A stretch of 15,778 nucleotides of DNA. Source: a virus (Duplodnaviria; Heunggongvirae; Uroviricota; Caudoviricetes). The notes under the pieces are model-generated. The model saw only the letters and a program-made list of their open reading frames with translations, was not told where the DNA came from and made no database searches. Positions 1,394 to 14,790 of the stretch are shown in pieces. Position 1 is the stretch's first letter. Every line of letters starts with the position of its first letter. Location: the IMG/VR virus record IMGVR_UViG_2909298281_000001, positions 1 through 15,778 of that record; one strand, given 5' to 3'. The position numbers and the translations under genes are program-made.

Positions 1394-2296
1394 ATGGAAA
1401 TATCGAAAAATAAAATTTGGGAAGCCAAAGAATGGGAATCTCATGTAAATGATTTACTCCGACTAAAATTTGGTGAAGTAAATTATATATCTATACCTGA
1501 TTTTCATAATGGGGACGCTGGAATTGAGGGATATTGTGTACAGGGATATGCTTTTCAGTCTTATTGTCCTAATGAGGCATGTACAGTTGATAAGTTGTAT
1601 GAAAAACAAAGAGACAAGATGACCGCGGATGTTGCAAAATTCATTTCAGATAAAAAGGGGTATTTAAAAGAAATTCTACAAAACACCAGAATAAAAAGAT
1701 GGATTTTGGTAGTGCCATCTCACTTATCTAAAAAATTGAATGTTCATGCAACAAAAAAAGAAAGTGAAGTTCTAGCTGCTAAATTACCTTATGTTGATAA
1801 TGATGATTTCAAGGTGCTTATTTGGGATCGAGAAAATTTCAAAAAAGAGGAAGATGAATTAATTAGCAGCGGGCTTAGATTATTGAGGATAGAACTTCCT
1901 GAAGTCGATATTAACGATATTGATAATCTAAAAGATAACAATAGCGAGTTTGGCGATAATATTTCAAGGAAGCTTAGAAAGATAAAAAATGATGAGCGTC
2001 AAGTACAGACAGCTTCAACTGTATTATTAAAAAATATAGTTATGTATAAAAACATCATGAGTGGCCTCAAAGATAACTATCCTAGTTTATATGAAAATAT
2101 AACAAATGGTATACTGGATCGTGAGCAAGATTTGTCCTTGGCTTTTTTTGATTCTGAAAATTTGACTCTGACTCAGCAAATTCAACACCTTAATGATAAG
2201 CTAAAACAGTCTAGCCGTCTTCATCAAGATAATCTAAAATGTATTTCTACCGGAGTGGTTGGTGATTGGCTAATGCGCTGTAATTTGGACTTTTAA
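1394..2296 (+). CDS. Hypothetical protein, 300 aa; first gene of hotspot cargo operon (candidate effector)
   Basis: ATG-initiated 300-aa ORF in a markedly A+T-rich segment. Stop TAA at 2294-2296 lies 2 nt before the next ATG (2299), consistent with an operon. No catalytic motif I can assign with confidence; the stretch IPDFHNGDAGIEGYCVQ could be a degenerate nuclease-like acidic motif but this is speculative. Confidence 0.6.
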   Translation: MEISKNKIWEAKEWESHVNDLLRLKFGEVNYISIPDFHNGDAGIEGYCVQGYAFQSYCPNEACTVDKLYEKQRDKMTADVAKFISDKKGYLKEILQNTRIKRWILVVPSHLSKKLNVHATKKESEVLAAKLPYVDNDDFKVLIWDRENFKKEEDELISSGLRLLRIELPEVDINDIDNLKDNNSEFGDNISRKLRKIKNDERQVQTASTVLLKNIVMYKNIMSGLKDNYPSLYENITNGILDREQDLSLAFFDSENLTLTQQIQHLNDKLKQSSRLHQDNLKCISTGVVGDWLMRCNLDF

Positions 2297-2298
2297 TC

Positions 2299-2763
2299 AT
2301 GGATATTCTAAAAGAAACGCCTGAAAAGATGACTTTTAACTCGACTGGTTCGCCTGTTGAACCCGAATTAAGACCCATCTGGAGAATATCCTTGCTTGCT
2401 ATCATTCTTAAAAAACTATGCAGAGGCTCTTCTGCGAGTTTAAAAAAAATGCAAGTTTTATATTCTTTGATTTCCTCCGCCGATAAAAGAAGTCGGTATT
2501 TCACTGAAGGAGGTAATGCGGATATAAGCATTCGGTTTGATCCTCTCTTAGATAGAGCTATTTCGTTGGGAGTGGCAGAAGGTATATTTACTTTGGATGC
2601 TGCAAAAAGCGTTGTGTTAACCAATAAGGGCACGCTCTTATCTAATAAAATTTACAAAGATTCAACATTATTCGTTTTTGAAAAGGAATTTATCGAGAAC
2701 TATAGTAAATCTGAATTTTCCGATAAAAAGATAGATCAAATATTATACAGGGGAATTATATGA
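2299..2763 (+). CDS. Hypothetical protein, 154 aa; middle gene of hotspot cargo operon
   Basis: ORF tightly packed between flanking genes; its stop TGA (2761-2763) overlaps the ATG of the next gene (2760-2762) as ATGA. AGGGGA Shine-Dalgarno-like sequence at 2748-2753 serves the downstream gene. No recognizable motif. Confidence 0.55.
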   Translation: MDILKETPEKMTFNSTGSPVEPELRPIWRISLLAIILKKLCRGSSASLKKMQVLYSLISSADKRSRYFTEGGNADISIRFDPLLDRAISLGVAEGIFTLDAAKSVVLTNKGTLLSNKIYKDSTLFVFEKEFIENYSKSEFSDKKIDQILYRGII

Positions 2764-3987
2764 GCAAACTTAAGATTGAGAGATTAATTATACGAACAAA
2801 TACTAGTGATGGAATATATGGGACAGACCTTAAATTTGGCTATGGTCTAAATATTATAAGTGCTGAGAACTCTTCTGGTAAATCCACCTGTATACAATCA
2901 ATTATTTATGCACTAGGATTGGAGGGAATATTGGGACCATCCAGAAAAAATCCCTTAAAGTCTGCTCTAACTACTAAATTACGTGATAATAATGATACTG
3001 AAATACCGGTTAATGAATCAAAAATTTATCTCCAACTTTCTAACGAACATTCAAGAAAAATAACTATTTTAAGAAAAAGTGATAGTGATATTTCAAAAAT
3101 CGTTACCGTATATGACTGTGAGTTCGATAAAATCAATCCTCACAAATTTACGGACTATTTTTTGAAAGATCCCGGTTCTGCTCAGCGTGAGAAAGGATTT
3201 CATTATTTTCTTTCGAATTTCTTAGGGATAACACAGCCCGAAGTGATTAAATATGATGGAACCAAGTGTCCACTTTATCTTGAGTCAATATTCACAGTTA
3301 ATTATGTAGAGCAAACAAGAGGTTGGGGTGGGATTCTAAATGTTATTCCTACTTACTTGGGTATTAAGGATTTATCACAAAACGTTCTTGAATATACTCT
3401 TAATTTAGATGTTCGAGAAATAAGAAAGAAACGCGAGATATTTTTAGATGAAAAGAAAAATCTTGAAACTAAATGGGCAAATACAATCTCAGAGTTAGAG
3501 TCTAATGCAAAGGCTTATGGCTTCTTTGTATCAACAAGAATACCTGATAAAATCACTACAAAATCAGATACCTATCAAGATAGTGATTTATATACATTGG
3601 ATGAAAATAATCGTGAGATTTCTTTACCACTATACAAGGCTCATAAAGAGAACGAATTAGAATATATTAGAGCACAATTAAAAAATAACGACATCCCTAA
3701 TGATGGGGTGTTAGATTCTGTTCTTGATAGTCTTCGAGTGAATTTAGCTAATCAAGAATATGCTCTTTCATTATTAATCTCTGACATAGAGTCTAATAAA
3801 CTGTATATAAGTTCAATTAATAAGAGTCTGACTGATACAAAAGAAAGTCTTAGAAAATATAGAGATATTGAAAAGCTTAAGTTATTGGGCTCGCAGGAGG
3901 ATTTTTCTTTTGTCACTGGTAGTTGCCCAACTTGTGGACAAGCCGTTGAAGATACTCTCTTACCAGCGAGCTTTGATGGAAAGACAT

Positions 3988-3996
3988 TAACGGTTG
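3988..3996. repeat. IS1 target-site duplication, left copy (TAACGGTTG)
   Basis: 9-bp TAACGGTTG immediately abuts the IS1 end and is repeated exactly at 4765-4773. Confidence 0.88.
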
Positions 3997-4011
3997 GGTA
4001 ATGACTCCAAC

Positions 4012-4515
4012 TTATTGATAGTGTTTTATGTTCAGATAATGCCCGATGACTTTGTCATGCAGCTCCACCGATTTTGAGAACGACAGCGACTTCCGTCCCA
4101 GCCGTGCCAGGTGCTGCCTCAGATTCAGGTTATGCCGCTCAATTCGCTGCGTATATCGCTTGCTGATTACGTGCAGCTTTCCCTTCAGGCGGGATTCATA
4201 CAGCGGCCAGCCATCCGTCATCCATATCACCACGTCAAAGGGTGACAGCAGGCTCATAAGACGCACCAGCGTCGCCATAGTGCGTTCACCGAATACGTGC
4301 GCAACAACCGTCTTCCGGAGCCTGTCATACGCGTAAAACAGCCAGCGCTGGCGCGATTTAGCCCCGACGTATCCCCACTGTTCGTCCATTTCTGCGCAGA
4401 CGATGACGTCACTGCCCGGCTGTATGCGCGAGGTTACCGACTGCGGCCTGAGTTTTTTAAGTGACGTAAAATCGTGTTGAGGCCAACGCCCATAATGCGG
4501 GCAGTTGCCCGGCAT
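4012..4515 (-). CDS. insB: IS1 transposase InsB reading frame, 167 aa (expressed as InsAB' fusion by -1 frameshift)
   Basis: Translation [25 protein letters not shown]...NIKHYQ matches IS1 InsB as I recall it; position and length are canonical within IS1. Confidence 0.9.
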
Positions 4516-4709
4516 CCAACGCCATTCATGGCCATATCAATGATTTTCTGGTGCGTACCGGGTTGAGAAGCGGTGTAAGTGAACTGCAGTTGCCATGTTT
4601 TACGGCAGTGAGAGCAGAGATAGCGCTGATGTCCGGCGGTGCTTTTGCCGTTACGCACCACCCCGTCAGTAGCTGAACAGGAGGGACAGCTGATAGAAAC
4701 AGAAGCCAC
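4434..4709 (-). CDS. insA: IS1 InsA transposition repressor, 91 aa
   Basis: Translation [43 protein letters not shown]... with zinc-finger CxxC..CxxC and HTH region; canonical IS1 InsA length. Confidence 0.93.
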
Positions 4710-4764
4710 TGGAGCACCTCAAAAACACCATCATACACTAAATCAGTAAGTTGGCAGCATCACC

Positions 4765-4773
4765 TAACGGTTG
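4765..4773. repeat. IS1 target-site duplication, right copy (TAACGGTTG)
   Basis: Exact repeat of 3988-3996 immediately after the IS1 terminal repeat. Confidence 0.88.
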
Positions 4774-5582
4774 AAGATAATATAAAGTATCTAGAAAAAA
4801 CCTATGCAGTATTTGATAGCTTGGCAAAAAGTGAAAAAATAAAATTTGAAAGAAAAGAAGCTGCATTAAAAGTAGCTAATGCTAAAGTTCGAGACTTGCG
4901 TAATCAGATCAAAGAAGTTCAGCGTAGCATATCATCTCCTATAAACTCCGAGCTTAGAGAACTCATAAGAAAGGAAGTTAAACTGGAAAAGGATATCGAC
5001 ATTTTAAACTCACTGGAGGAATTCGAAATTAGTAAAAAAGATACACTTATGGCTGTTCTTTCTGATTGGTATGATTGTAATAATCAACTAACAGTACTTC
5101 CGTATGATGGTTTTAGCAAAGCAGATATATTAAAGTTGAGGTTATTACGTGATTCATTTAAATCAAACTTGGAGGATTTTGGTTATAAAAGTACACCAAT
5201 TGAAGAGTTTGATTTATCGAGAAATACATACAAACCAACTGTCGATGGTATAGATATCGGCTCTGAAGCATCCGCCAGTGATAACATTAGGGTGATTTGG
5301 TCATATTTGTATTCATTGTTGATGTTAGATTCCAGTGCAAGAGATATCTCAACTAATCATTTGGGACTGTTGATTATGGATGAACCAAGACAGCAAGAAA
5401 CTAAAGATGCTAGTTTTAGAACACTAATTAAGAAAGCATCTGAGTCGTATATTCAAGAAAAACAGATTATTATGGGTACTAGTGAAAAATTTACTGATTT
5501 AATTGCCATGCTGGATGGTTTGCATGTGAATCTTTTGCATTTCGATAGTAATATTATCCGTAAACAGTAAATCCCTCAATGT

Positions 5583-5994: not shown

Positions 5995-6567
5995 TTACAC
6001 AGACTGATGTGATGCCAGTTGCGCACTTTTACGCGAAAAAATCATGTTCTGCGCAGGGGTGAATTTTTCACGGCTGTCATCCACCGAAGCCGCGTCAGGC
6101 CTGAATCCGATGGTCGTTAAAATGTCGCTATCCTGTGCGGAATAATTAATTTTTTCACCCTTCGCAAGCCAGGACAGGAGGGCTTCACGCAGGGCATCTG
6201 TGGCACGCTGTATGGCACAGTTTCGGGCAATGACCGTCAGTTCACTGTAGCCCATCAGCTCCGGTGCCAGTGCGGCCGCCAGTACTGTGCCGTGCTGCTG
6301 CATAAAATCATTCAGCCGGTCGCGGATGCTGATGTGCTGAACGGCTTCATGCGAACGAATATAACGACCGGCGGCCTGATTCACCTGCCATTTTCTGACT
6401 TCGATAATATTGCGTAATTCGTCCAGGCGACTGACGTTTCTGCCTTCTCCTGACAGAAGCCGCAGGTATTCCTGTTCGGCCGCTGCCAGCTCATTTTTGC
6501 GTTGCAGCCATGCTGCTTTGTTATTCTGATAGGTGTCAAAGGCCTGCTGTAAGGCTGTGCTTTCCAT
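5995..6567 (-). CDS. psu: Psu polarity-suppression protein (capsid decoration / Rho antagonist), 190 aa
   Basis: 190-aa ORF beginning MESTALQQAFDTYQNNKAAWLQRKNELAAAEQEY... Length and sequence character match P4 Psu as I recall it, and it is the last gene of a sid-delta-psu order. Confidence 0.9.
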   Translation of the reverse strand: MESTALQQAFDTYQNNKAAWLQRKNELAAAEQEYLRLLSGEGRNVSRLDELRNIIEVRKWQVNQAAGRYIRSHEAVQHISIRDRLNDFMQQHGTVLAAALAPELMGYSELTVIARNCAIQRATDALREALLSWLAKGEKINYSAQDSDILTTIGFRPDAASVDDSREKFTPAQNMIFSRKSAQLASHQSV

Positions 6568-6640: not shown

Positions 6641-7141
6641 TCATTCCAGACGCAGCGAATATGATTGTGTTTTTAACCGTACTGGCGGCAGTTCCTGTTT
6701 TTCATGCAGGCGTTCTGCCAGTTCGTCCGGTGTGACCGGGCGGACAATGAAGCGGTTGATGGTCTGAAGCGTTTTAAACACCAGACCACAGCCCGGATCC
6801 GTGCACACATAAAAACGCTCGGTGACTTCCTGAGAGAGACGCCGCGATGTTCTTGACAGTGCAAGGCCTTTACATCTCCGACAACAATATCCGGTAACAA
6901 GCATTCTTTTCGGGCGTTTCATACTGCCGGAGGCTGACGTCAGTGAATCGCGGTATCTCTGTTTGCCTGAAATGTATTCCATTCCTGAATCTTTACTGTC
7001 AGAGAAAAAGCTTTCACTCGCTTCAAATGTCGCAGAGCAATAAATATTCCGGCACTGTGCAATCATTATCTTGGTGCCATCGTCCATGAAATGTGCGCGG
7101 CGGGTGTGAGCAACATGTCCACACGACGGGCAGTAAATCAT
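6641..7141 (-). CDS. delta: Delta late-gene transcriptional activator (tandem Ogr-like zinc-finger protein), 166 aa
   Basis: Two Ogr-type cysteine clusters (CPSCGH...CRNIYC and CRRC...CTDPGC) in a 166-aa protein, the P4 Delta length as I recall. ATGA overlap with the sid stop (7138-7141). Confidence 0.9.
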   Translation of the reverse strand: MIYCPSCGHVAHTRRAHFMDDGTKIMIAQCRNIYCSATFEASESFFSDSKDSGMEYISGKQRYRDSLTSASGSMKRPKRMLVTGYCCRRCKGLALSRTSRRLSQEVTERFYVCTDPGCGLVFKTLQTINRFIVRPVTPDELAERLHEKQELPPVRLKTQSYSLRLE

Positions 7142-7872
7142 GACAGCAGTCCTCTGGCCTTAAGCTCTGCTCCCTGCTGGTCTATTTTGTCCTGCCACAC
7201 CTTGCGCTGTGCCGGTGTGCCCGCCACCTCATAATCCATGTGCGGAAGTGTTGCCGCTGACAGTCCGGTCAGCCGGAGAACCGGCTCGCCGGTGAGGCTG
7301 ATTTGCATCTGTTTTATTTTCTGTTCCAGCGATGATTTCACCTGCTGCATGACAGCTTTATCGGGTGCGACGTAGCCCTGATGCCCGGTGGTGTTGGCGA
7401 GCGGATTTTCCTGTACCAGAATGCTCAGATGCATTGCCCGGACAAGCGCCTCACAGGTTTCATTCAGGGCGTGTTCCAGCTCATGCTCTGCATACAGACT
7501 CAGCAGGTGATGATGTGCCTTCCGGTAGGCGGTGGCCGTGCTGTCACACGCCCCTTTCAGGCGTTCACGTTCGAAATTCAGCACCACGGCCAGATTGTCA
7601 TATTCCTGTACCAGCTCCCGGCGTGCCACGCGCTCAATGTGGCGCTGTTTCAGCTCGTCGCTCAGGACACCACCGGCTGCACGAAAGGCCGTGCGCCAGT
7701 CGTCAGCGTCGTTTCCGTCGGCCTGCGCCAGCGCATTTTTTTCCTGCTCTGCCCGTTCAATGGCCGCGACGGTCTCATCCATCAGGCGGGCGTTCTCAAG
7801 ATGGGCGGCTCTGGCCTTTTCCAGTTGTGCCAGTGCGGGTTGCAGATATTCAGGGATAGTGTGGTCAGACAT
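7138..7872 (-). CDS. sid: Sid external scaffold (capsid size determination) protein, 244 aa from the ATG at 7872
   Basis: The track ORF (7138..7890) starts at a GTG. The in-frame ATG at 7870-7872 is preceded on the minus strand by GAGGAG about 8 nt upstream and gives 244 aa, the P4 Sid length as I recall. Coiled-coil-like, alanine-rich sequence. Confidence 0.85.
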   Translation of the reverse strand: MSDHTIPEYLQPALAQLEKARAAHLENARLMDETVAAIERAEQEKNALAQADGNDADDWRTAFRAAGGVLSDELKQRHIERVARRELVQEYDNLAVVLNFERERLKGACDSTATAYRKAHHHLLSLYAEHELEHALNETCEALVRAMHLSILVQENPLANTTGHQGYVAPDKAVMQQVKSSLEQKIKQMQISLTGEPVLRLTGLSAATLPHMDYEVAGTPAQRKVWQDKIDQQGAELKARGLLS

Positions 7873-7897
7873 TTTCCGGCTCCTCGTCACTTCAGGT

Positions 7898-7962
7898 TAA
7901 GAAAATTGTGACGTACACCGGACAACAACACGACGCATTGCAGATGTGCCAGCCCTGACACA
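7898..7962 (-). promoter_or_regulatory. Candidate Psid late promoter with two TGT-N12-ACA Delta/Ogr-type dyads
   Basis: Dyads TGTGCCAGCCCTGACACA (7945-7962) and TGTGACGTACACCGGACA (7907-7924), centres about 38 bp apart. With a predicted leftward start near 7898 (a CACAAT -10-like hexamer on the minus strand at 7910-7905), they sit at about -55 and -17. I recall P4 late promoters carrying an extra activator site near -18. Confidence 0.5.
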
Positions 7963-8041
7963 GGAGACTCATCCTCAGACCGGCAAGCCAGGAAAAGGTC
8001 GCAGGAAAAACCGGCTTACTGTTTGTTTTTTTATATTTTAC

Positions 8042-8145
8042 TGTTCACCTCTGTTCACCATAAGAAAAAAGATAAGTAATACAGTAAGTTAAAGGGTGAA
8101 CAATCGCAGTAATGACTGTTCACCGTCTGTTCACCACTGTTCACC
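8042..8145. repeat. Iteron cluster (TGTTCACC octamers), candidate P4-type ori
   Basis: Five direct copies of TGTTCACC (8042-8049, 8052-8059, 8118-8125, 8128-8135, 8138-8145) and one inverted copy GGTGAACA (8095-8102). The same octamer recurs in the crr repeats downstream of alpha, about 4.8 kb away, consistent with the P4 ori/crr arrangement as I recall it. Confidence 0.6.
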
Positions 8146-8302
8146 CGTTAATGGGCTTTTTGTGCTGTTCATTACTTTTTATTTTTATTAATTCACTGAA
8201 ATAAATAAGAAAAAACAATTTGTATTTCACTATAATTTTTTCCAGCTCCTTCCAGAGCGTTTTAAAGCTATCTGCGCTGATGTACAAAAAATACACAGCC
8301 AT

Positions 8303-8365
8303 TGTAAGACTGCCGGAACAAATCCCCCCTGTTGCGTCTGCCGAAAATATTCACAAAATAAAGCG
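8303..8365 (+). promoter_or_regulatory. Candidate PLL late promoter upstream of vis
   Basis: TGT-N12-ACA dyad TGTAAGACTGCCGGAACA (8303-8320) followed about 45 bp later by a CACAAA -10-like hexamer (8352-8357) resembling the Psid CACAAT. A second, imperfect dyad lies near 8339-8355. Start site predicted around 8365. Confidence 0.4.
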
Positions 8366-8422
8366 CTACCCGAAGCCGGACGGACTTATCCGGTGCTGTA
8401 TGGACATTAACGAGGTAGCCCG

Positions 8423-8689
8423 ATGCAAGCTGTTTTTTCTTCCCCGTCTCCCGCCCCTGTGACGCCACTGATGCCGCTGCCGGACATCACGCAGGAGCGT
8501 TTTTTACGTCTGCCGGAAGTGATGCACCTGTGCGGCCTGTCACGCTCGACCATCTATGAACTCATCCGTAAGGGGGAATTTCCGCCGCAGGTGAGTCTTG
8601 GCGGTAAAAATGTGGCCTGGCTGCACTCTGAAGTCACCGCATGGATGGCCGGGCGCATTGCCGGACGCAAACGGGGGTACGACGCATGA
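8423..8689 (+). CDS. vis: Vis-like / AlpA-family helix-turn-helix regulator, 88 aa
   Basis: GAGG 7 nt upstream of the ATG. Sequence ...[28 protein letters not shown].. is AlpA/Vis-type HTH in character. 88 aa matches the P4 orf88 (vis) length as I recall. Confidence 0.75.
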
Positions 8690-8724
8690 TGATGCCTGTT
8701 CTGCAAAAAGTCCCTTTTTCTGGC

Positions 8725-8754
8725 TTGCCTTTTTCCGGCATTTGCGGATATAGT
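8725..8754 (+). promoter_or_regulatory. Candidate PLE early/immunity promoter (sigma-70 type)
   Basis: -35 TTGCCT (8725-8730), 18-bp spacer, -10 TATAGT (8749-8754). Lies just upstream of the seqA-like element at about 8784-8810. Confidence 0.4.
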
Positions 8755-8929
8755 TTTTCCGCTGTCGCAAAATCGGCAGCCGGGCGTAGGAACCCGTGTA
8801 ACTCGAAGGCGACATATGACGCGCCATGCGTCTTTTTTTGTGTCGCAATCAACGCCACAGAGCGCCAGATTATGGTGTGGCGTGTGGTTTGCCGTGCAGG
8901 TATGATCCTGTTCGCAATCGCATGTTATG

Positions 8930-9008
8930 CCACTGAGTCAATGGTAGCTCAGGCGGGGCAGCCTCCGGGCTGGCCGGTATTCTTCGAGGCCGGTATTCCT
9001 ACCCCCGT
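8930..9008 (+). ncRNA. Candidate CI immunity RNA (P4-type RNA repressor) containing a seqB-like element; boundaries approximate
   Basis: A segment TTCTTCGAGGCCGGTATTCCTACCC (about 8980-9004) is complementary to two flanking elements that share GCGTAGGAAC...CTCGAAGG (about 8784-8810 and 9028-9068), matching the seqA/seqB/seqC logic of P4 immunity as I recall it. Ends cannot be set from sequence alone. Confidence 0.35.
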
Positions 9009-9078
9009 CTGGGCTATCGCCATCGAGCGTAGGAACTCCGGCGATAGCAGTTATTTGCTACTCGAAGGAGACGGCCTT

Positions 9079-9276
9079 ATGGCTACAACCCTTACCCCCT
9101 CACACCCTGAATTTGTCTTTGTGTTTGCGGCTGTCCGTCGCGCAGACCGTCATCCCCGTATCTGTATGCTTCGCACCGTCGCCGGTGATGAACGCAGTGC
9201 CCGCCGTTCCCTTGTCCGTGACTATGTGCTCTCCCTTGCTGCCCGTCTGCCGGTGGTGGAGGTGTCCCGTGCGTAA
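9079..9276 (+). CDS. Small protein, 65 aa, kil-like by position (first translated gene after the immunity RNA)
   Basis: ATG at 9079 preceded by AAGGAG (9065-9070), which lies inside the downstream seqC-like element. Stop overlaps the next gene's GTG start (GTGCGTAA, 9269-9276). Confidence 0.45.
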
Positions 9277-9556
9277 TAAAAAAGCCCCTCAGACCGTCTC
9301 AGCGCGTCATGACGCCCGTGAACACCTCAGCATTGAGGCTTACCATAAGCTCAACCGCGCCAGCGCCGTATCCCAGTTTGTTGGGGGTGATTTGATTCAC
9401 CGTGAACTCTCCGGCCTGCATCAGCTCTACATTCCGCATATTTTCAGCTACCTGAATGAAGATATTGATTTTGTGCTGAATGAGCTGAAAGCCAAAGGCC
9501 TGTGCCGCGATTTTCTCGCCCAGCAGAAAGACCGGGGAGACAGGACGCATGTTTGA
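9269..9556 (+). CDS. Epsilon-like small protein, about 95 aa from the GTG start (assignment by position)
   Basis: GTG at 9269 is preceded by GGAGG (9258-9262) and is in frame with the track ORF 9113..9556. Its stop overlaps the orf151 start. Sits immediately upstream of orf151 as the epsilon gene does in P4, as I recall. Confidence 0.5.
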
Positions 9557-10004
9557 TTTTCCCCAGCCCGGTGAGATTTACCGTTCTGCCGGTTTTCCCG
9601 ATGTGGCCGTGGTCGGCATTCTGGAAGACGGTATTCCGTGGGAAATGCCGTACCGCTGCCCGGACATTGTCTGGAACCCGTACCGCCGTAAATTCAGTAT
9701 CCTTGTGCGTATCCTCGCTGACGGGCGCACCACAGACATCCCGCTGGGGCGTTTTCTGCGGGAATTTACCTGTGACCGTCCTGACCTGTTTAAACGCAGC
9801 CCCGTAAACCGGCATGCGGTACTGAAAGAAATGGCCGGAGACCCGGAATTACAGAAATGGCGGGAGAAATATCTGGATATTTACCCGCAGGACCCTGTTC
9901 CGGTCAGCCGGGCGGCACCGGTGGCGCGGGAATGGCGGGAAATTCCCCGCACGGAGCCTGACCCGGAAATCACCCCGGATAACAGTTACCGCAATTATCT
10001 GTAA
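9549..10004 (+). CDS. P4 orf151-like protein, 151 aa
   Basis: Exact 151-aa length, position between the epsilon-like gene and alpha, and start overlapping the upstream stop (ATGTTTGA). Confidence 0.8.
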   Translation: MFDFPQPGEIYRSAGFPDVAVVGILEDGIPWEMPYRCPDIVWNPYRRKFSILVRILADGRTTDIPLGRFLREFTCDRPDLFKRSPVNRHAVLKEMAGDPELQKWREKYLDIYPQDPVPVSRAAPVAREWREIPRTEPDPEITPDNSYRNYL

Positions 10005-10139
10005 TTAAAAAACGACACCCGAAAAATTAAATGTGCGTATTCGCGCAGGGATACGCACGTCTTCAGGAGACGCAGATATGCCTTATCAGTTAATGCAACC
10101 GGCACGGAATGCAGTCATCTGTCACAGGGAGGAAAGCAA

Positions 10140-10460
10140 ATGAAAACACCCTTACCGCCCGTCTTACGCGCTGCCCTTTACCGTCGTGCTGTCGCCTGTG
10201 CCTGGCTGACCGTGTGCGAACGTCAGCACCGCTACCCGCATCTCACCCTTGAGTCACTGGAGGCGGCCATCGCCGCTGAGCTGGAAGGCTTTTATCTGCG
10301 CCAGCACGGTGAGGAAAAAGGGCGTCAGATAGCCTGTGCCCTGCTGGAAGATTTAATGGAATCCGGCCCCCTGAAGGCCGCGCCGTCGCTGTCCTTTCTC
10401 GGGCTGGTTGTGATGGATGAACTCTGTGCCCGTCACATAAAAGCGCCGGTACTGCACTGA
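10140..10460 (+). CDS. P4 orf106-like protein, 106 aa
   Basis: 106-aa ORF immediately upstream of alpha with matching codon usage. The name is from recollected P4 ORF nomenclature. Confidence 0.7.
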
Positions 10461-10474
10461 AGGAGAACTACACC

Positions 10475-12808
10475 ATGAAAATGAACGTAACCGCCACCGT
10501 CAGTCATGCGCTCGGCCACTGGCCGCGTATTCTCCCGGCGCTGGGGATTCAGGTGCTGAAAAACCGTCATCAGCCCTGTCCGGTCTGTGGCGGGAGTGAC
10601 CGCTTCCGTTTTGATGACAGGGAGGGGCGCGGCACCTGGTACTGCAATCAGTGTGGTGCCGGTGACGGCCTGAAACTGGTTGAAAAGGTGTTTGGTGTTT
10701 CCCCGTCCGACGCGGCCGCAAAGGTGGCTGCCGTGACCGGCAGCCTGCCCCCGGCTGACCCGGCAGTGACGGCCGCCGCCGTTGCTGAAACAGAAGCCGC
10801 CCGGAAGAACGCCGCCGCACTGGCACAAACCCTGATGGCGAAAACCCGTCCCGGAACCGGTAACGCCTACCTGACCCGCAAGGGCTTTCCCGGCCGGGAA
10901 TGCCGGATGCTGACCGGCACACACAGAGCCGGTGGCGTGAGCTGGCGCGCCGGTGACCTTGTGGTGCCACTGTATGACGACAGCGGCGAACTGGTTAACC
11001 TTCAGTTAATCAGTGCTGACGGCCGTAAGCGCACCCTGAAAGGCGGACAGGTCAGGGGCACCTGTCACATCCTTGAAGGACAGAATCAGGCCGGAAAACG
11101 TCTGTGGATAGCGGAGGGATACGCGACCGCACTTACCGTGCATCACCTGACCGGTGAAACGGTGATGGTGGCGCTTTCTTCCGTGAACCTCCTTTCTCTG
11201 GCCAGACTTGCCCGGCAGAAGCATCCGGCCTGTCAGATTGTCCTTGCCGCAGACCGTGACCTCAGCGGTGACGGCCAGAAAAAAGCCGCCGCAGCCGCAG
11301 ATGCGTGTGAAGGTGTTGTTGCCCTGCCGCCGGTCTTCGGTGACTGGAATGATGCCTTCACGCAGTACGGCGGGGAGGCCACCCGTAAGGCCATTTACGA
11401 TGCCATCCGGCCACCGGCTGAAAGCCCGTTCGACACCATGAGCGAAGCGGAGTTTTCCGCCATGAGTACCAGCGAAAAGGCCATGCGTATCTATGAGCAT
11501 TACGGCGAGGCGCTCGCGGTCGATGCCAACGGCCAGCTTCTGTCCCGTTATGAAAATGGTGTCTGGAAGGTGCTGCCGCCACAGGACTTTGCCCGGGATG
11601 TGGCCGGGCTGTTTCAGCGGCTGCGCGCGCCGTTCTCCTCCGGGAAGGTGGCCTCCGTGGTGGACACCCTGAAGCTGATTATTCCGCAGCAGGAAGCCCC
11701 CTCCCGCCGCCTGATTGGCTTTCGTAACGGTGTGCTCGACACACAGAACGGCACGTTCCACCCGCACAGTCCGTCACACTGGATGCGCACCCTGTGTGAT
11801 GTGGATTTCACCCCACCGGTGGAAGGGGAAACGCTGGAAACCCACGCCCCCGCGTTCTGGCGCTGGCTTGACCGTGCCGCCGGTGGCCGTGCGGAAAAAC
11901 GCGACGTGATTCTGGCCGCACTGTTTATGGTGCTGGCAAACCGCTACGACTGGCAGCTCTTTCTGGAGGTGACCGGTCCCGGCGGCAGCGGCAAAAGTAT
12001 CATGGCCGAAATAGCCACCCTGCTGGCCGGGGAGGATAACGCCACATCGGCCACCATTGAGACGCTGGAATCCCCGCGTGAACGTGCCGCGTTAACTGGC
12101 TTCTCACTGATACGCCTGCCTGACCAGGAAAAATGGAGCGGCGACGGTGCCGGACTCAAGGCCATCACCGGCGGCGATGCGGTGTCCGTTGACCCGAAAT
12201 ACCGGGATGCGTACTCCACGCACATCCCGGCGGTGATTCTGGCCGTGAACAATAACCCGATGCGCTTCACCGACCGCAGCGGCGGCGTGTCACGCCGGCG
12301 GGTGATTATTCACTTCCCTGAACAGATAGCCCCGCAGGAGCGCGACCCGCAGCTTAAGGACAAAATCACCCGCGAGCTGGCGGTCATCGTGCGTCACCTG
12401 ATGCAGAAATTCAGCGACCCGATGCTCGCCCGGTCACTGCTTCAGTCCCAGCAGAACTCAGACGAGGCGCTGAACATCAAACGGGATGCCGACCCGACGT
12501 TTGATTTTATCGGCTATCTGGAAACCCTGCCGCAGACCAGCGGCATGTATATGGGGAACGCCAGTATCATCCCGCGCAATTACCGTAAATACCTCTATCA
12601 CGCCTATCTGGCCTACATGGAGGCAAACGGCTACCGGAACGTACTCAGTCTGAAAATGTTCGGGCTGGGGCTGCCGGTGATGCTGAAGGAATACGGACTG
12701 AATTACGAGAAGCGCCATACCAAACAGGGGATACAGACCAACCTGACACTGAAAGAGGAAAGCTACGGCGACTGGCTGCCAAAATGTGACGACCCTGCAA
12801 CAGCCTGA
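10475..12808 (+). CDS. alpha: Alpha primase-helicase replication protein, 777 aa
   Basis: AAGGAGA ribosome-binding site (10460-10466). N-terminal zinc-binding CPVCGGSDRF...YCNQCGAGDG followed by a primase-type acidic region (..LAADRDLSGDGQ..). Central Walker A GPGGSGKS and D5-type SF3 helicase region. 777 aa is the P4 alpha length as I recall. Confidence 0.95.
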   Translation: MKMNVTATVSHALGHWPRILPALGIQVLKNRHQPCPVCGGSDRFRFDDREGRGTWYCNQCGAGDGLKLVEKVFGVSPSDAAAKVAAVTGSLPPADPAVTAAAVAETEAARKNAAALAQTLMAKTRPGTGNAYLTRKGFPGRECRMLTGTHRAGGVSWRAGDLVVPLYDDSGELVNLQLISADGRKRTLKGGQVRGTCHILEGQNQAGKRLWIAEGYATALTVHHLTGETVMVALSSVNLLSLARLARQKHPACQIVLAADRDLSGDGQKKAAAAADACEGVVALPPVFGDWNDAFTQYGGEATRKAIYDAIRPPAESPFDTMSEAEFSAMSTSEKAMRIYEHYGEALAVDANGQLLSRYENGVWKVLPPQDFARDVAGLFQRLRAPFSSGKVASVVDTLKLIIPQQEAPSRRLIGFRNGVLDTQNGTFHPHSPSHWMRTLCDVDFTPPVEGETLETHAPAFWRWLDRAAGGRAEKRDVILAALFMVLANRYDWQLFLEVTGPGGSGKSIMAEIATLLAGEDNATSATIETLESPRERAALTGFSLIRLPDQEKWSGDGAGLKAITGGDAVSVDPKYRDAYSTHIPAVILAVNNNPMRFTDRSGGVSRRRVIIHFPEQIAPQERDPQLKDKITRELAVIVRHLMQKFSDPMLARSLLQSQQNSDEALNIKRDADPTFDFIGYLETLPQTSGMYMGNASIIPRNYRKYLYHAYLAYMEANGYRNVLSLKMFGLGLPVMLKEYGLNYEKRHTKQGIQTNLTLKEESYGDWLPKCDDPATA

Positions 12809-12815
12809 CCCACCT

Positions 12816-12841
12816 GACCGGCATCTGCCGGTCTTTTTTTT
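12816..12841 (+). terminator. Rho-independent terminator after alpha
   Basis: GACCGGCA-TC-TGCCGGTC perfect 8-bp stem (12816-12833) followed directly by a run of eight T (12834-12841), 8 nt after the alpha stop. Confidence 0.75.
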
Positions 12842-12856
12842 ATCCCGATATCCCCC

Positions 12857-13160
12857 GAAGGTGAACAATCCACTGTTCACCCTTCACCGTATGTTCACCC
12901 GTTATCACACTGAAATTAAAAGAGAAAAACGAAAGGTGAACAGTGTGAACAATCAAATCAAAAAAAACTTTTTTCTTCCTGAGTGATTTCAGTACGGGGG
13001 ATTAATCACCGGTATGAGTCACACCGGCAGAATGCCGGAGGTGAAGAATCGAATGTTCACCCTTCACCCATTATTCACCATCTATTACTCTGAAATAAAA
13101 GGAGAAAATCAAAGGGTGAACAGTGTGAACAGTTCTTCCGAAAAAAAATTTTTTATGTGG
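12857..13160. repeat. crr (cis replication region): two direct repeats of about 120 bp, each with several TGTTCACC/GGTGAACA iterons
   Basis: Unit 1 about 12857-12980 and unit 2 about 13037-13160 align closely (e.g. ..GTTCACCCTTCACC..CTGAAAT.AAAAG.AGAAAA.C.AAAGGTGAACAGTGTGAACA..AAAAAAA.TTTTTT). The about 60-bp spacing matches my recollection of P4 crr. Confidence 0.7.
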
Positions 13161-13817: not shown

Positions 13818-14060
13818 TTACTCACTTCGAACTGCATCCTCGTAGACTGTTCCACTACAATAATCGAAAAGGCGCGGATGTCCATTCAGGTATCCCGCTA
13901 ATACGTATAGCAATAACAATGGCTTATGCGGCGCGCGCTGTTCACCCTTGTGCCAGATTTTTATATTGGCAATTGCCTGCTGTAGCGATTTACTGGAAGC
14001 TATTGATATCCCTGGCAGTGAAATAATTGCGATCATGCTCGCAAATTTTCTGCTGTTCAA
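13818..14060 (-). CDS. Hypothetical small ORF, 80 aa
   Basis: ORF from track. Weak local resemblance (I-x-I-W-x-x-G-E ... P) to the N-terminal region of the divergent HNH-domain protein at 14140..14790. Confidence 0.3.
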   Translation of the reverse strand: MNSRKFASMIAIISLPGISIASSKSLQQAIANIKIWHKGEQRAPHKPLLLLYVLAGYLNGHPRLFDYCSGTVYEDAVRSE

Positions 14061-14139: not shown

Positions 14140-14790
14140 ATGAATAAACTCCCTGATCATCTTCCGCGGCGGTATATCATCGAAGCTATCCATTTATGGG
14201 ATGCGGGAGAAACTCATCAGTTCCAGCCTGCGCGGTTGTATGAGATTGAATATCATGGCCGACGTTACCCCTCGAAGGCGATTGCTGGCATCGCAGCGAC
14301 ATTGATGACGGGGACGCAATTTACCCCTGCGGATTTCACCGGCGGAATAAAATCTAAATGTGTCAAGCTACTCATAGAGCAGGGATTTCATATTCATCTG
14401 GATAAAGCCGCTGCGGCTCCCATAGCCGACGTTCTGTTCCCGGATGAGTTGCCGTCGCAGGAGACATACCTTGAAGGTGCGGCGATAAAGGTGACAGTAA
14501 ACCGCTATGAACGCGATAAAAAGGCCCGAGATAAAGCGGTCGAACATCATGGATGCCAGTGCAACGTATGCGGTGTTGATCTGGTGAAGATCTATGGTGA
14601 TATCGCTGAAGGCTTTATCCATGTGCATCACCTGGTGCCGCTGTCAGCCATTAAAGAGGATTACCAGCTGGATCCAGTTAATGATTTGCTGCCTGTGTAC
14701 CCTAATTGCCATGCGATGTTGCACCGACGCAAACCACCGTTTACGCCGGAGCAGTTAAAAGCGCTGATGGATGCGAATAAATCAAATTAA
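14140..14790 (+). CDS. HNH endonuclease-domain protein, 216 aa, with an uncharacterized N-terminal domain
   Basis: C-terminal HNH-type motif CQCNVCGV...HVHHLVPLS...N...YPNCHAMLH (two Cys pairs plus His-His and Asn). The N-terminal 130 aa has no motif I can assign. Confidence 0.75.
   Translation: MNKLPDHLPRRYIIEAIHLWDAGETHQFQPARLYEIEYHGRRYPSKAIAGIAATLMTGTQFTPADFTGGIKSKCVKLLIEQGFHIHLDKAAAAPIADVLFPDELPSQETYLEGAAIKVTVNRYERDKKARDKAVEHHGCQCNVCGVDLVKIYGDIAEGFIHVHHLVPLSAIKEDYQLDPVNDLLPVYPNCHAMLHRRKPPFTPEQLKALMDANKSN

Follow-up and report, generated by a model that had tools for sequence, protein, structure and literature searches.

The closest described system to the locus analysed here is the replication origin of phage P4. 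The minimal ori1 of P4 measures about 123 bp and consists of six iterons and a 35-bp AT segment, and changes in the number or the spacing of the iterons inactivate it. The start of P4 replication was reportedly mapped at ori by electron microscopy, and the deletion of any iteron is reported to have abolished the function of oriI. In the GenBank record of P4 (X51522) the six type 1 repeats of the origin extend from 9310 to 9413, within the rep_origin feature at 9086-9809. Phased tandem initiator-binding repeats adjoining an AT-rich segment are found, as here, in the iteron plasmid origins (pSC101, R6K gamma, RK2 oriV and P1 oriR), which also resemble the present locus in having an initiator that is encoded in cis and binds via a winged-helix domain. 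In the SaPIs, short iterons flank an AT-rich segment. The D5/SF3 replicons, among them PICI/SaPI and the archaeal plasmid pRN1, share with the present locus a multifunctional initiator in which a primase and an SF3 helicase are joined to a winged-helix domain at the C terminus (PMC2777425). In pRN1 it was not possible to recognise any iterons (PMC2777425).

The stretch of DNA that was analysed (15,778 nucleotides, referred to below as the window) contains a cluster of the octamer TGTTCACC at 8042-8145, which the first-pass annotation had put forward as a candidate P4-type ori. An exact search of the window returned the same six copies that had been described, five direct and one inverted. The alignment with P4 ori, which had been named as the check for this candidate, gave 94.6% identity over 801 bp (window 7700-8500 against X51522), and the GenBank features beneath the match were the 'origin of DNA replication', six copies of the 'ori type 1 repeat' and three of the 'ori type 2 repeat'. 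The six octamers corresponded one-to-one to the annotated type 1 repeats and were alike in order, orientation and spacing. Type I iterons 1 (8042-8049) and 2 (8052-8059), both on the plus strand, are exact matches to TGTTCACC and equal P4 9406-9413, annotated as 'ori type 1 repeat', and 9396-9403. The inverted iteron 3 (8095-8102, minus strand) equals P4 9353-9360, and iterons 4 (8117-8124), 5 (8128-8135) and 6 (8138-8145), again exact and on the plus strand, equal P4 9331-9338, 9320-9327 and 9310-9317, respectively. Between 7850 and 8150 the window differed from P4 by two substitutions only, at 8061 and 8065, and both lie in the AT-rich spacer. The six-octamer cluster is thus almost certainly, as far as this near-identity can tell, the ori (ori1) of a P4-like satellite prophage and one half of its bipartite oriI. 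The proposed candidate is also supported by the presence of its partners, alpha and crr. The origin has already been characterised in phage P4, and the feature is an ordinary one with nothing new to it.

The whole window contained 13 exact copies of TGTTCACC, while 0.56 were expected (standard deviation 0.75, maximum 3) from 200 dinucleotide-preserving shuffles. As none of the 200 shuffles attained 13 copies, the cluster is real and far beyond chance. The iterons of ori are spaced 10, 43, 22, 11 and 10 bp from centre to centre, and the 96 bp from the first centre to the last correspond to 9 helical turns of 10.7 bp each. According to the repeat finder the true repeat unit is (A/T)CTGTTCACC, and iterons 3 and 4 pair as inverted repeats over 11 nt. 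A terminator-like call at 8124-8095 was rejected; it is this same inverted pair with a weak T tail.

Iterons 2 and 3 are separated by an AT-rich spacer of 35 bp (8060-8094) with 7 G+C in 35 positions, which is presumed to be the unwinding segment. A T-rich tract at 8022-8041 (GC 25-37%) forms the left edge of the conserved origin island, and an AT-rich stretch with a GC content of 15-30% follows to the right of the iterons at 8146-8242, where the composition profile reached its minimum of 15%. The cluster is located in the 550-bp intergenic region between sid and vis. The DnaA-box search found none in or near the ori cluster, which fits a self-contained initiator.

The marks by which a P4 ori1 is recognised were thus found in the window: six phased iterons, an AT segment of about 35 bp and base-level homology with P4, and in addition a cis-encoded alpha, a crr about 4.5-4.7 kb away and cnr. 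With P4 ori the locus has in common the six iterons, the 35-bp AT insert, the position between sid and vis, and alpha, Cnr and crr at the same distance. It differs from P4 ori in the two spacer substitutions, in scattered substitutions in the AT-rich sequence that follows the iterons on the right, and in the replacement of the three type 2 repeats of P4 by unrelated sequence; the three tandem 10-bp type 2 repeats of the GenBank origin were not found in the window. As the type 2 repeats presumably lie outside the published minimal ori1 and are not needed by it, their absence leaves ori1 membership unaffected.

The locus does not have the properties of a classical Rep/DnaA-dependent iteron origin. 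The plasmid origins have iterons of 17-22 bp together with one or more DnaA boxes, whereas the iterons of the window measure 8 bp and are not accompanied by a DnaA box. The plasmid Rep protein has neither helicase nor primase and recruits DnaA and DnaB, whereas the initiator encoded in the window is itself a primase-helicase. Unlike the plasmid origins, an origin of the window type also requires a second, distant cis site, crr. In PICI/SaPI the iteron sequences are unrelated to those of the window, and the SaPI origin adjoins the rep gene and is not bipartite.

The partners of ori in the P4 replicon were all present. The initiator gene alpha (10475-12808, plus strand) was assigned by its Pfam domains, its identity with P4 alpha and its match to a known structure. 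The product is identical to P4 alpha in 769 of 777 residues (99%) and carries the domains Zn_Ribbon_Prim and Toprim (primase), D5_N/SF3 helicase and a C-terminal Pox_D5. Residues 671-770 are identical to PDB 1KA8 in all 100 positions. The depositors gave the 1KA8 chain the title 'putative P4-specific DNA primase', and we take this domain to be the origin-binding domain of P4 alpha. Directly upstream of alpha lies cnr (ORF106; 10140-10460, plus strand; Pfam DUF5375), whose product is identical to that of P4 ORF106 in 106 of 106 residues and presumably regulates the copy number of the oriI replicon.

The second cis-acting replication site, crr, occupies 12855-13154 and consists of two 120-bp direct repeats with five iterons each, which the repeat finder placed at 12855-12974 and 13035-13154. 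It is identical to P4 crr (4291-4590) at 289 of 300 positions (96%). The statement that the octamer of the ori cluster also populates crr was borne out by six exact copies of TGTTCACC between 12860 and 13122, and four further copies with one mismatch each were found at positions where P4 has an annotated repeat. All ten annotated P4 crr iteron positions are kept, and one of them is improved, as TATTCACC is replaced by the consensus. The distance of about 4.8 kb between the cluster and crr that had been given beforehand also held, with 4818 bp from start to start and a gap of 4710 bp (8145 to 12855). The likeness of this spacing to P4 was likewise correct, the corresponding value in P4 being 4720 bp. 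In the annotation of the window, the label P4-type ori can be given to 8022-8146 and the label crr to 12855-13154. Binding of alpha to the window ori and alpha-dependent firing would be expected from the near-identity to the experimentally studied P4 origin.

The mechanism is taken from published work on P4 (Flensburg & Calendar 1987; Ziegelin et al. 1993, 1995, 1997; Tocchetti et al. 1999; Yeo et al. 2002). Once the element has been derepressed and has excised, alpha would bind the iterons of ori and crr via its C-terminal winged-helix domain, its helicase (3'-5') would open the AT-rich DNA and its primase would lay the primers. Bidirectional theta replication would then be carried out by the host DNA polymerase III. 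Replication of the P4 type would proceed without DnaA, DnaB, DnaC and DnaG. Cnr would limit the copy number by modulating the binding of alpha, and the origin would be silent as long as the element is integrated and repressed. PMC8628076 supports what is said here in general terms about alpha and about how abundant P4-like elements are.

In a megablast comparison, the whole window was 96% identical to phage P4 (X51522/NC_001609) over 55% of its length, and its gene order is that of integrated P4. To judge from its sequence, the window is a P4-like prophage integrated in the E. coli chromosome. It begins with int (1-1260), which is followed by an accessory region. Psu (5995-6567), delta (6641-7141) and sid (7138-7872) are encoded on the minus strand, and an intact vis (ORF88; 8423-8689, 88 aa) on the plus strand. 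An Ash-family ORF and then ORF151 lie between the immunity RNAs and cnr. Pfam supported Psu, Ogr_Delta, an AlpA-type Vis, the integrase and the alpha domains. The replicon is intact, and the prophage is therefore probably mobilisable.

The similarity to P4 stops at about 13368, the position expected for the attP core, and is followed by chromosomal genes (HNH endonuclease, nanS) that are found in most E. coli genomes. An HNH endonuclease ORF of 216 aa, just outside the prophage at 14140-14790, weakly matches profiles of type IV methyl-directed restriction enzymes; in the related genome ET210 it adjoins a restriction-endonuclease pseudogene. A lone exact TGTTCACC was present at 13939-13946, about 570 bp past the end of P4 homology and in chromosomal DNA. 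It was rejected as a part of the element, being outside the prophage and at the chance level of 0.56 expected copies per window.

The prophage differs from P4 in being chromosomally integrated and in its cargo, which consists of Lamassu and IS1 instead of gop/beta/cII. The Lamassu defence system is carried by an accessory hotspot at 1394-5570, between int and cos/psu. It comprises LmuA (1394-2296), LmuC (2299-2763) and LmuB, which is interrupted by an IS1 element at about 3995-4765. The N-terminal portion of LmuB lies at 2760-4001 and covers positions 2-334 of the 610 of the profile, and the C-terminal portion lies at 4821-5570 and covers positions 361-597.

The iterons had been described as lying between two late promoters, and a pattern search was consistent with this description, as TGT-N12-ACA dyads were found on either side of the cluster. 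Two dyads on the minus strand, at 7907-7924 and 7945-7962, are the same as in P4 and are putative Delta/Ogr sites of the leftward promoter Psid. A third one on the plus strand, at 8303-8320, about 100 bp upstream of vis (8423-8689), is a putative activator site of the rightward promoter PLL. At P2/P4 late promoters, a TGT-N12-ACA dyad centred near -55 presumably serves as the activator site for Ogr/Delta. By their position, the two leftward dyads would fit Psid transcription starting near 7898, at about -55 and -18 from that start, and the rightward dyad would fit a start of PLL near 8366. No promoter was detected by the sigma-70 scan at either Psid or PLL, which is the expected result where transcription depends on an activator, and the sole sigma-70-like match, at 8725-8754, fits PLE. 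Downstream of this PLE-like promoter, Rfam placed isrK at 8761-8838 and the C4 antisense RNA at 8937-9024. Together they mark the immunity RNA region of P4, which is intact here.

The ori region was present in 1007 of 5426 complete E. coli genomes and was chromosomal every time; the present finding correctly recovers a textbook origin, and the genome that carries it belongs to these roughly 1000 out of 5426. The exact 30-bp block of iterons 4-6 also occurred in 12 species representatives from six other enterobacterial genera (Kluyvera, Enterobacter, Buttiauxella, Klebsiella, Citrobacter and Tenebrionibacter), and the remaining iteron positions were kept in these genomes. To avoid selection on the iterons, 80 IMG/VR loci were fetched by alpha homology alone. 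Among the 79 loci with upstream sequence, 76 had 4-7 exact iteron copies upstream of alpha, and 75 had at least five. The usual arrangement of the iterons in the alpha-selected loci was ++-+++, and a crr cluster followed alpha in every locus with enough downstream sequence.

The identity of the single segments to the window was determined for nine distinct ori regions that could be anchored and aligned, from 13 loci with an alpha 84-87% identical to that of the window. In these nine divergent loci the identity was 1.00 for iterons 4-6, 0.99 for iteron 3, 0.89 for iterons 1-2 and 0.88 for the 35-bp AT spacer. Iteron 1 reads TATTCACC in divergent lineages. The left T-tract (8022-8041) reached 0.80 and the spacer at 8103-8116 reached 0.54. 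The left flank was identical at 0.60-0.63, the stretch 8146-8242 at 0.49 and the stretch 8243-8330 at 0.31-0.36. The iterons and the AT spacer thus form a conserved island (88-100%) amid flanks of 31-63%. These segment identities place the island at about 8022-8146, and its length of about 125 bp agrees with the size of about 123 bp given for the minimal ori1. The iterons and the AT spacer appear to be under purifying selection. In natural variation the constrained parts are the iterons, their spacing and the AT insert. The origin-binding domain was the best kept part of three divergent alphas, with 94-95% identity, where the primase had 80% and the helicase 86%, and this matches the invariance of the iterons.

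The position of the P4 type 2 repeats is occupied in the window by a variable patch at 8243-8277, which aligns to P4 9176-9205, with its three 'ori type 2 repeats', and has unrelated sequence. Read on the other strand, the P4 repeats are TTAAAGTCA, TTAAAGCCA and TTAAAGCAA with a spacing of 10 bp, and they coincide with the tandem P2 Cox boxes upstream of PLL. The cox-box consensus is TTAAA(G/C)NC(A/C) with a spacing of 10-11 bp, and the array lets P2 Cox activate P4 PLL (PMC3936717). The cox-box scan of the window found none of the three boxes of P4; the sole match had one mismatch and lay on the opposite strand. Among loci with an alpha about 99% identical, the patch occurred as three discrete alleles. 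Allele A, the P4 type, was found in 439 complete E. coli genomes, allele B, the type of the window, in 347 and allele C in 238. Of the 1213 places with an ori in complete E. coli genomes, about 1100 had one of the three alleles, and the replicons that carry these alleles are otherwise about 99% identical. The existence of three alleles shows, at the level of sequence comparison, that conservation of the origin does not extend to the 'type 2 repeats'. Satellites of other genera have tandem TTGCCA or GGCCAA repeats at the position of the patch.

Since W-phi Cox is reported neither to bind P2 cox-boxes nor to activate P4 (PMC5009727), the patch may be a helper-specific sensing module. We tentatively consider that it could be swappable and that each allele might bind the Cox/Apl protein of a different P2-like helper, although we think this rather less likely than its opposite. 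If it were true, the patch allele would set which helper wakes which satellite, and the polymorphic Cox-box patch could serve as a handle on the helper specificity of P4-like satellites. Allele C had a weak motif resemblance to the W-phi Pe-Pc region (CTGGAAGGGTC versus CCTAGAAGGGAC) and shared a few 7-8-mers with it, and no similarity to that region was found for allele B. A W-phi-type Cox site in the patch is therefore not claimed. At 8258-8272, the allele B of the window reads GCTATCTGCGCTG, while 347 of 347 complete genomes and the IMG/VR loci read GCTATCTGGCGCTG; a 1-bp deletion private to this copy, or else a sequencing error, would account for the difference.

Other readings of the cluster were weighed against that of a P4-type ori. 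The octamer is short, and this is all that would speak for a chance or low-complexity repeat without function. This reading is refuted by the shuffles, none of which equalled the observed count, and by the conservation of position, order and spacing across genera, and we give it practically no credence. It is also conceivable that the iterons are chiefly a regulatory or titration site, at which bound alpha modulates the late promoters or handcuffs ori to crr for copy-number control. The cluster does lie between the control elements of Psid and PLL, crr has the same iterons yet carries no start-site annotation, and the terminator scan flagged an 11-bp hairpin formed by iterons 3 and 4, which are inverted relative to each other. 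However, GenBank annotates the segment as an origin, the electron-microscopic mapping of the replication start and the reported loss of oriI function upon iteron deletion point the same way, and the 35-bp AT-rich insert is conserved, as expected of an unwinding element. The iterons could have a regulatory role alongside their function as an origin, but it is very unlikely to be their sole one.

A further possibility accepts the homology to P4 ori and holds that the locus is a dead relic, the prophage being cryptic and its origin no longer firing. The cargo region is indeed damaged, with LmuB split by IS1. In ET210, the closest complete genome, vis and icd-like genes of the corresponding copy are frameshifted, and the 1-bp deletion in the patch of the window is absent from all 347 allele-B genomes. 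The IS1 element, however, lies in the accessory hotspot and outside the replicon, while ori, crr, alpha and cnr are intact and 96-100% identical to functional P4, vis is intact with 88 aa, and the immunity RNAs are present. A relic is improbable on this evidence, if somewhat less so than a purely regulatory site, and the P4-type ori is retained as the reading of the cluster.

Some departures from the usual arrangement were seen among the alpha-selected IMG/VR loci. Three of them (L028, L078 and L083) encode an alpha about 99% identical to that of the window and have neither the ori iteron cluster nor the vis leader within 5 kb upstream; two of the three keep crr. They may be chimeras or have undergone rearrangement. 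Natural variation was also seen in how many exact ori iterons a locus has. Seven are present in L043 and L071, and L096 has an extra tandem copy after iteron 6 together with a degenerate first iteron, which again results in six exact copies.
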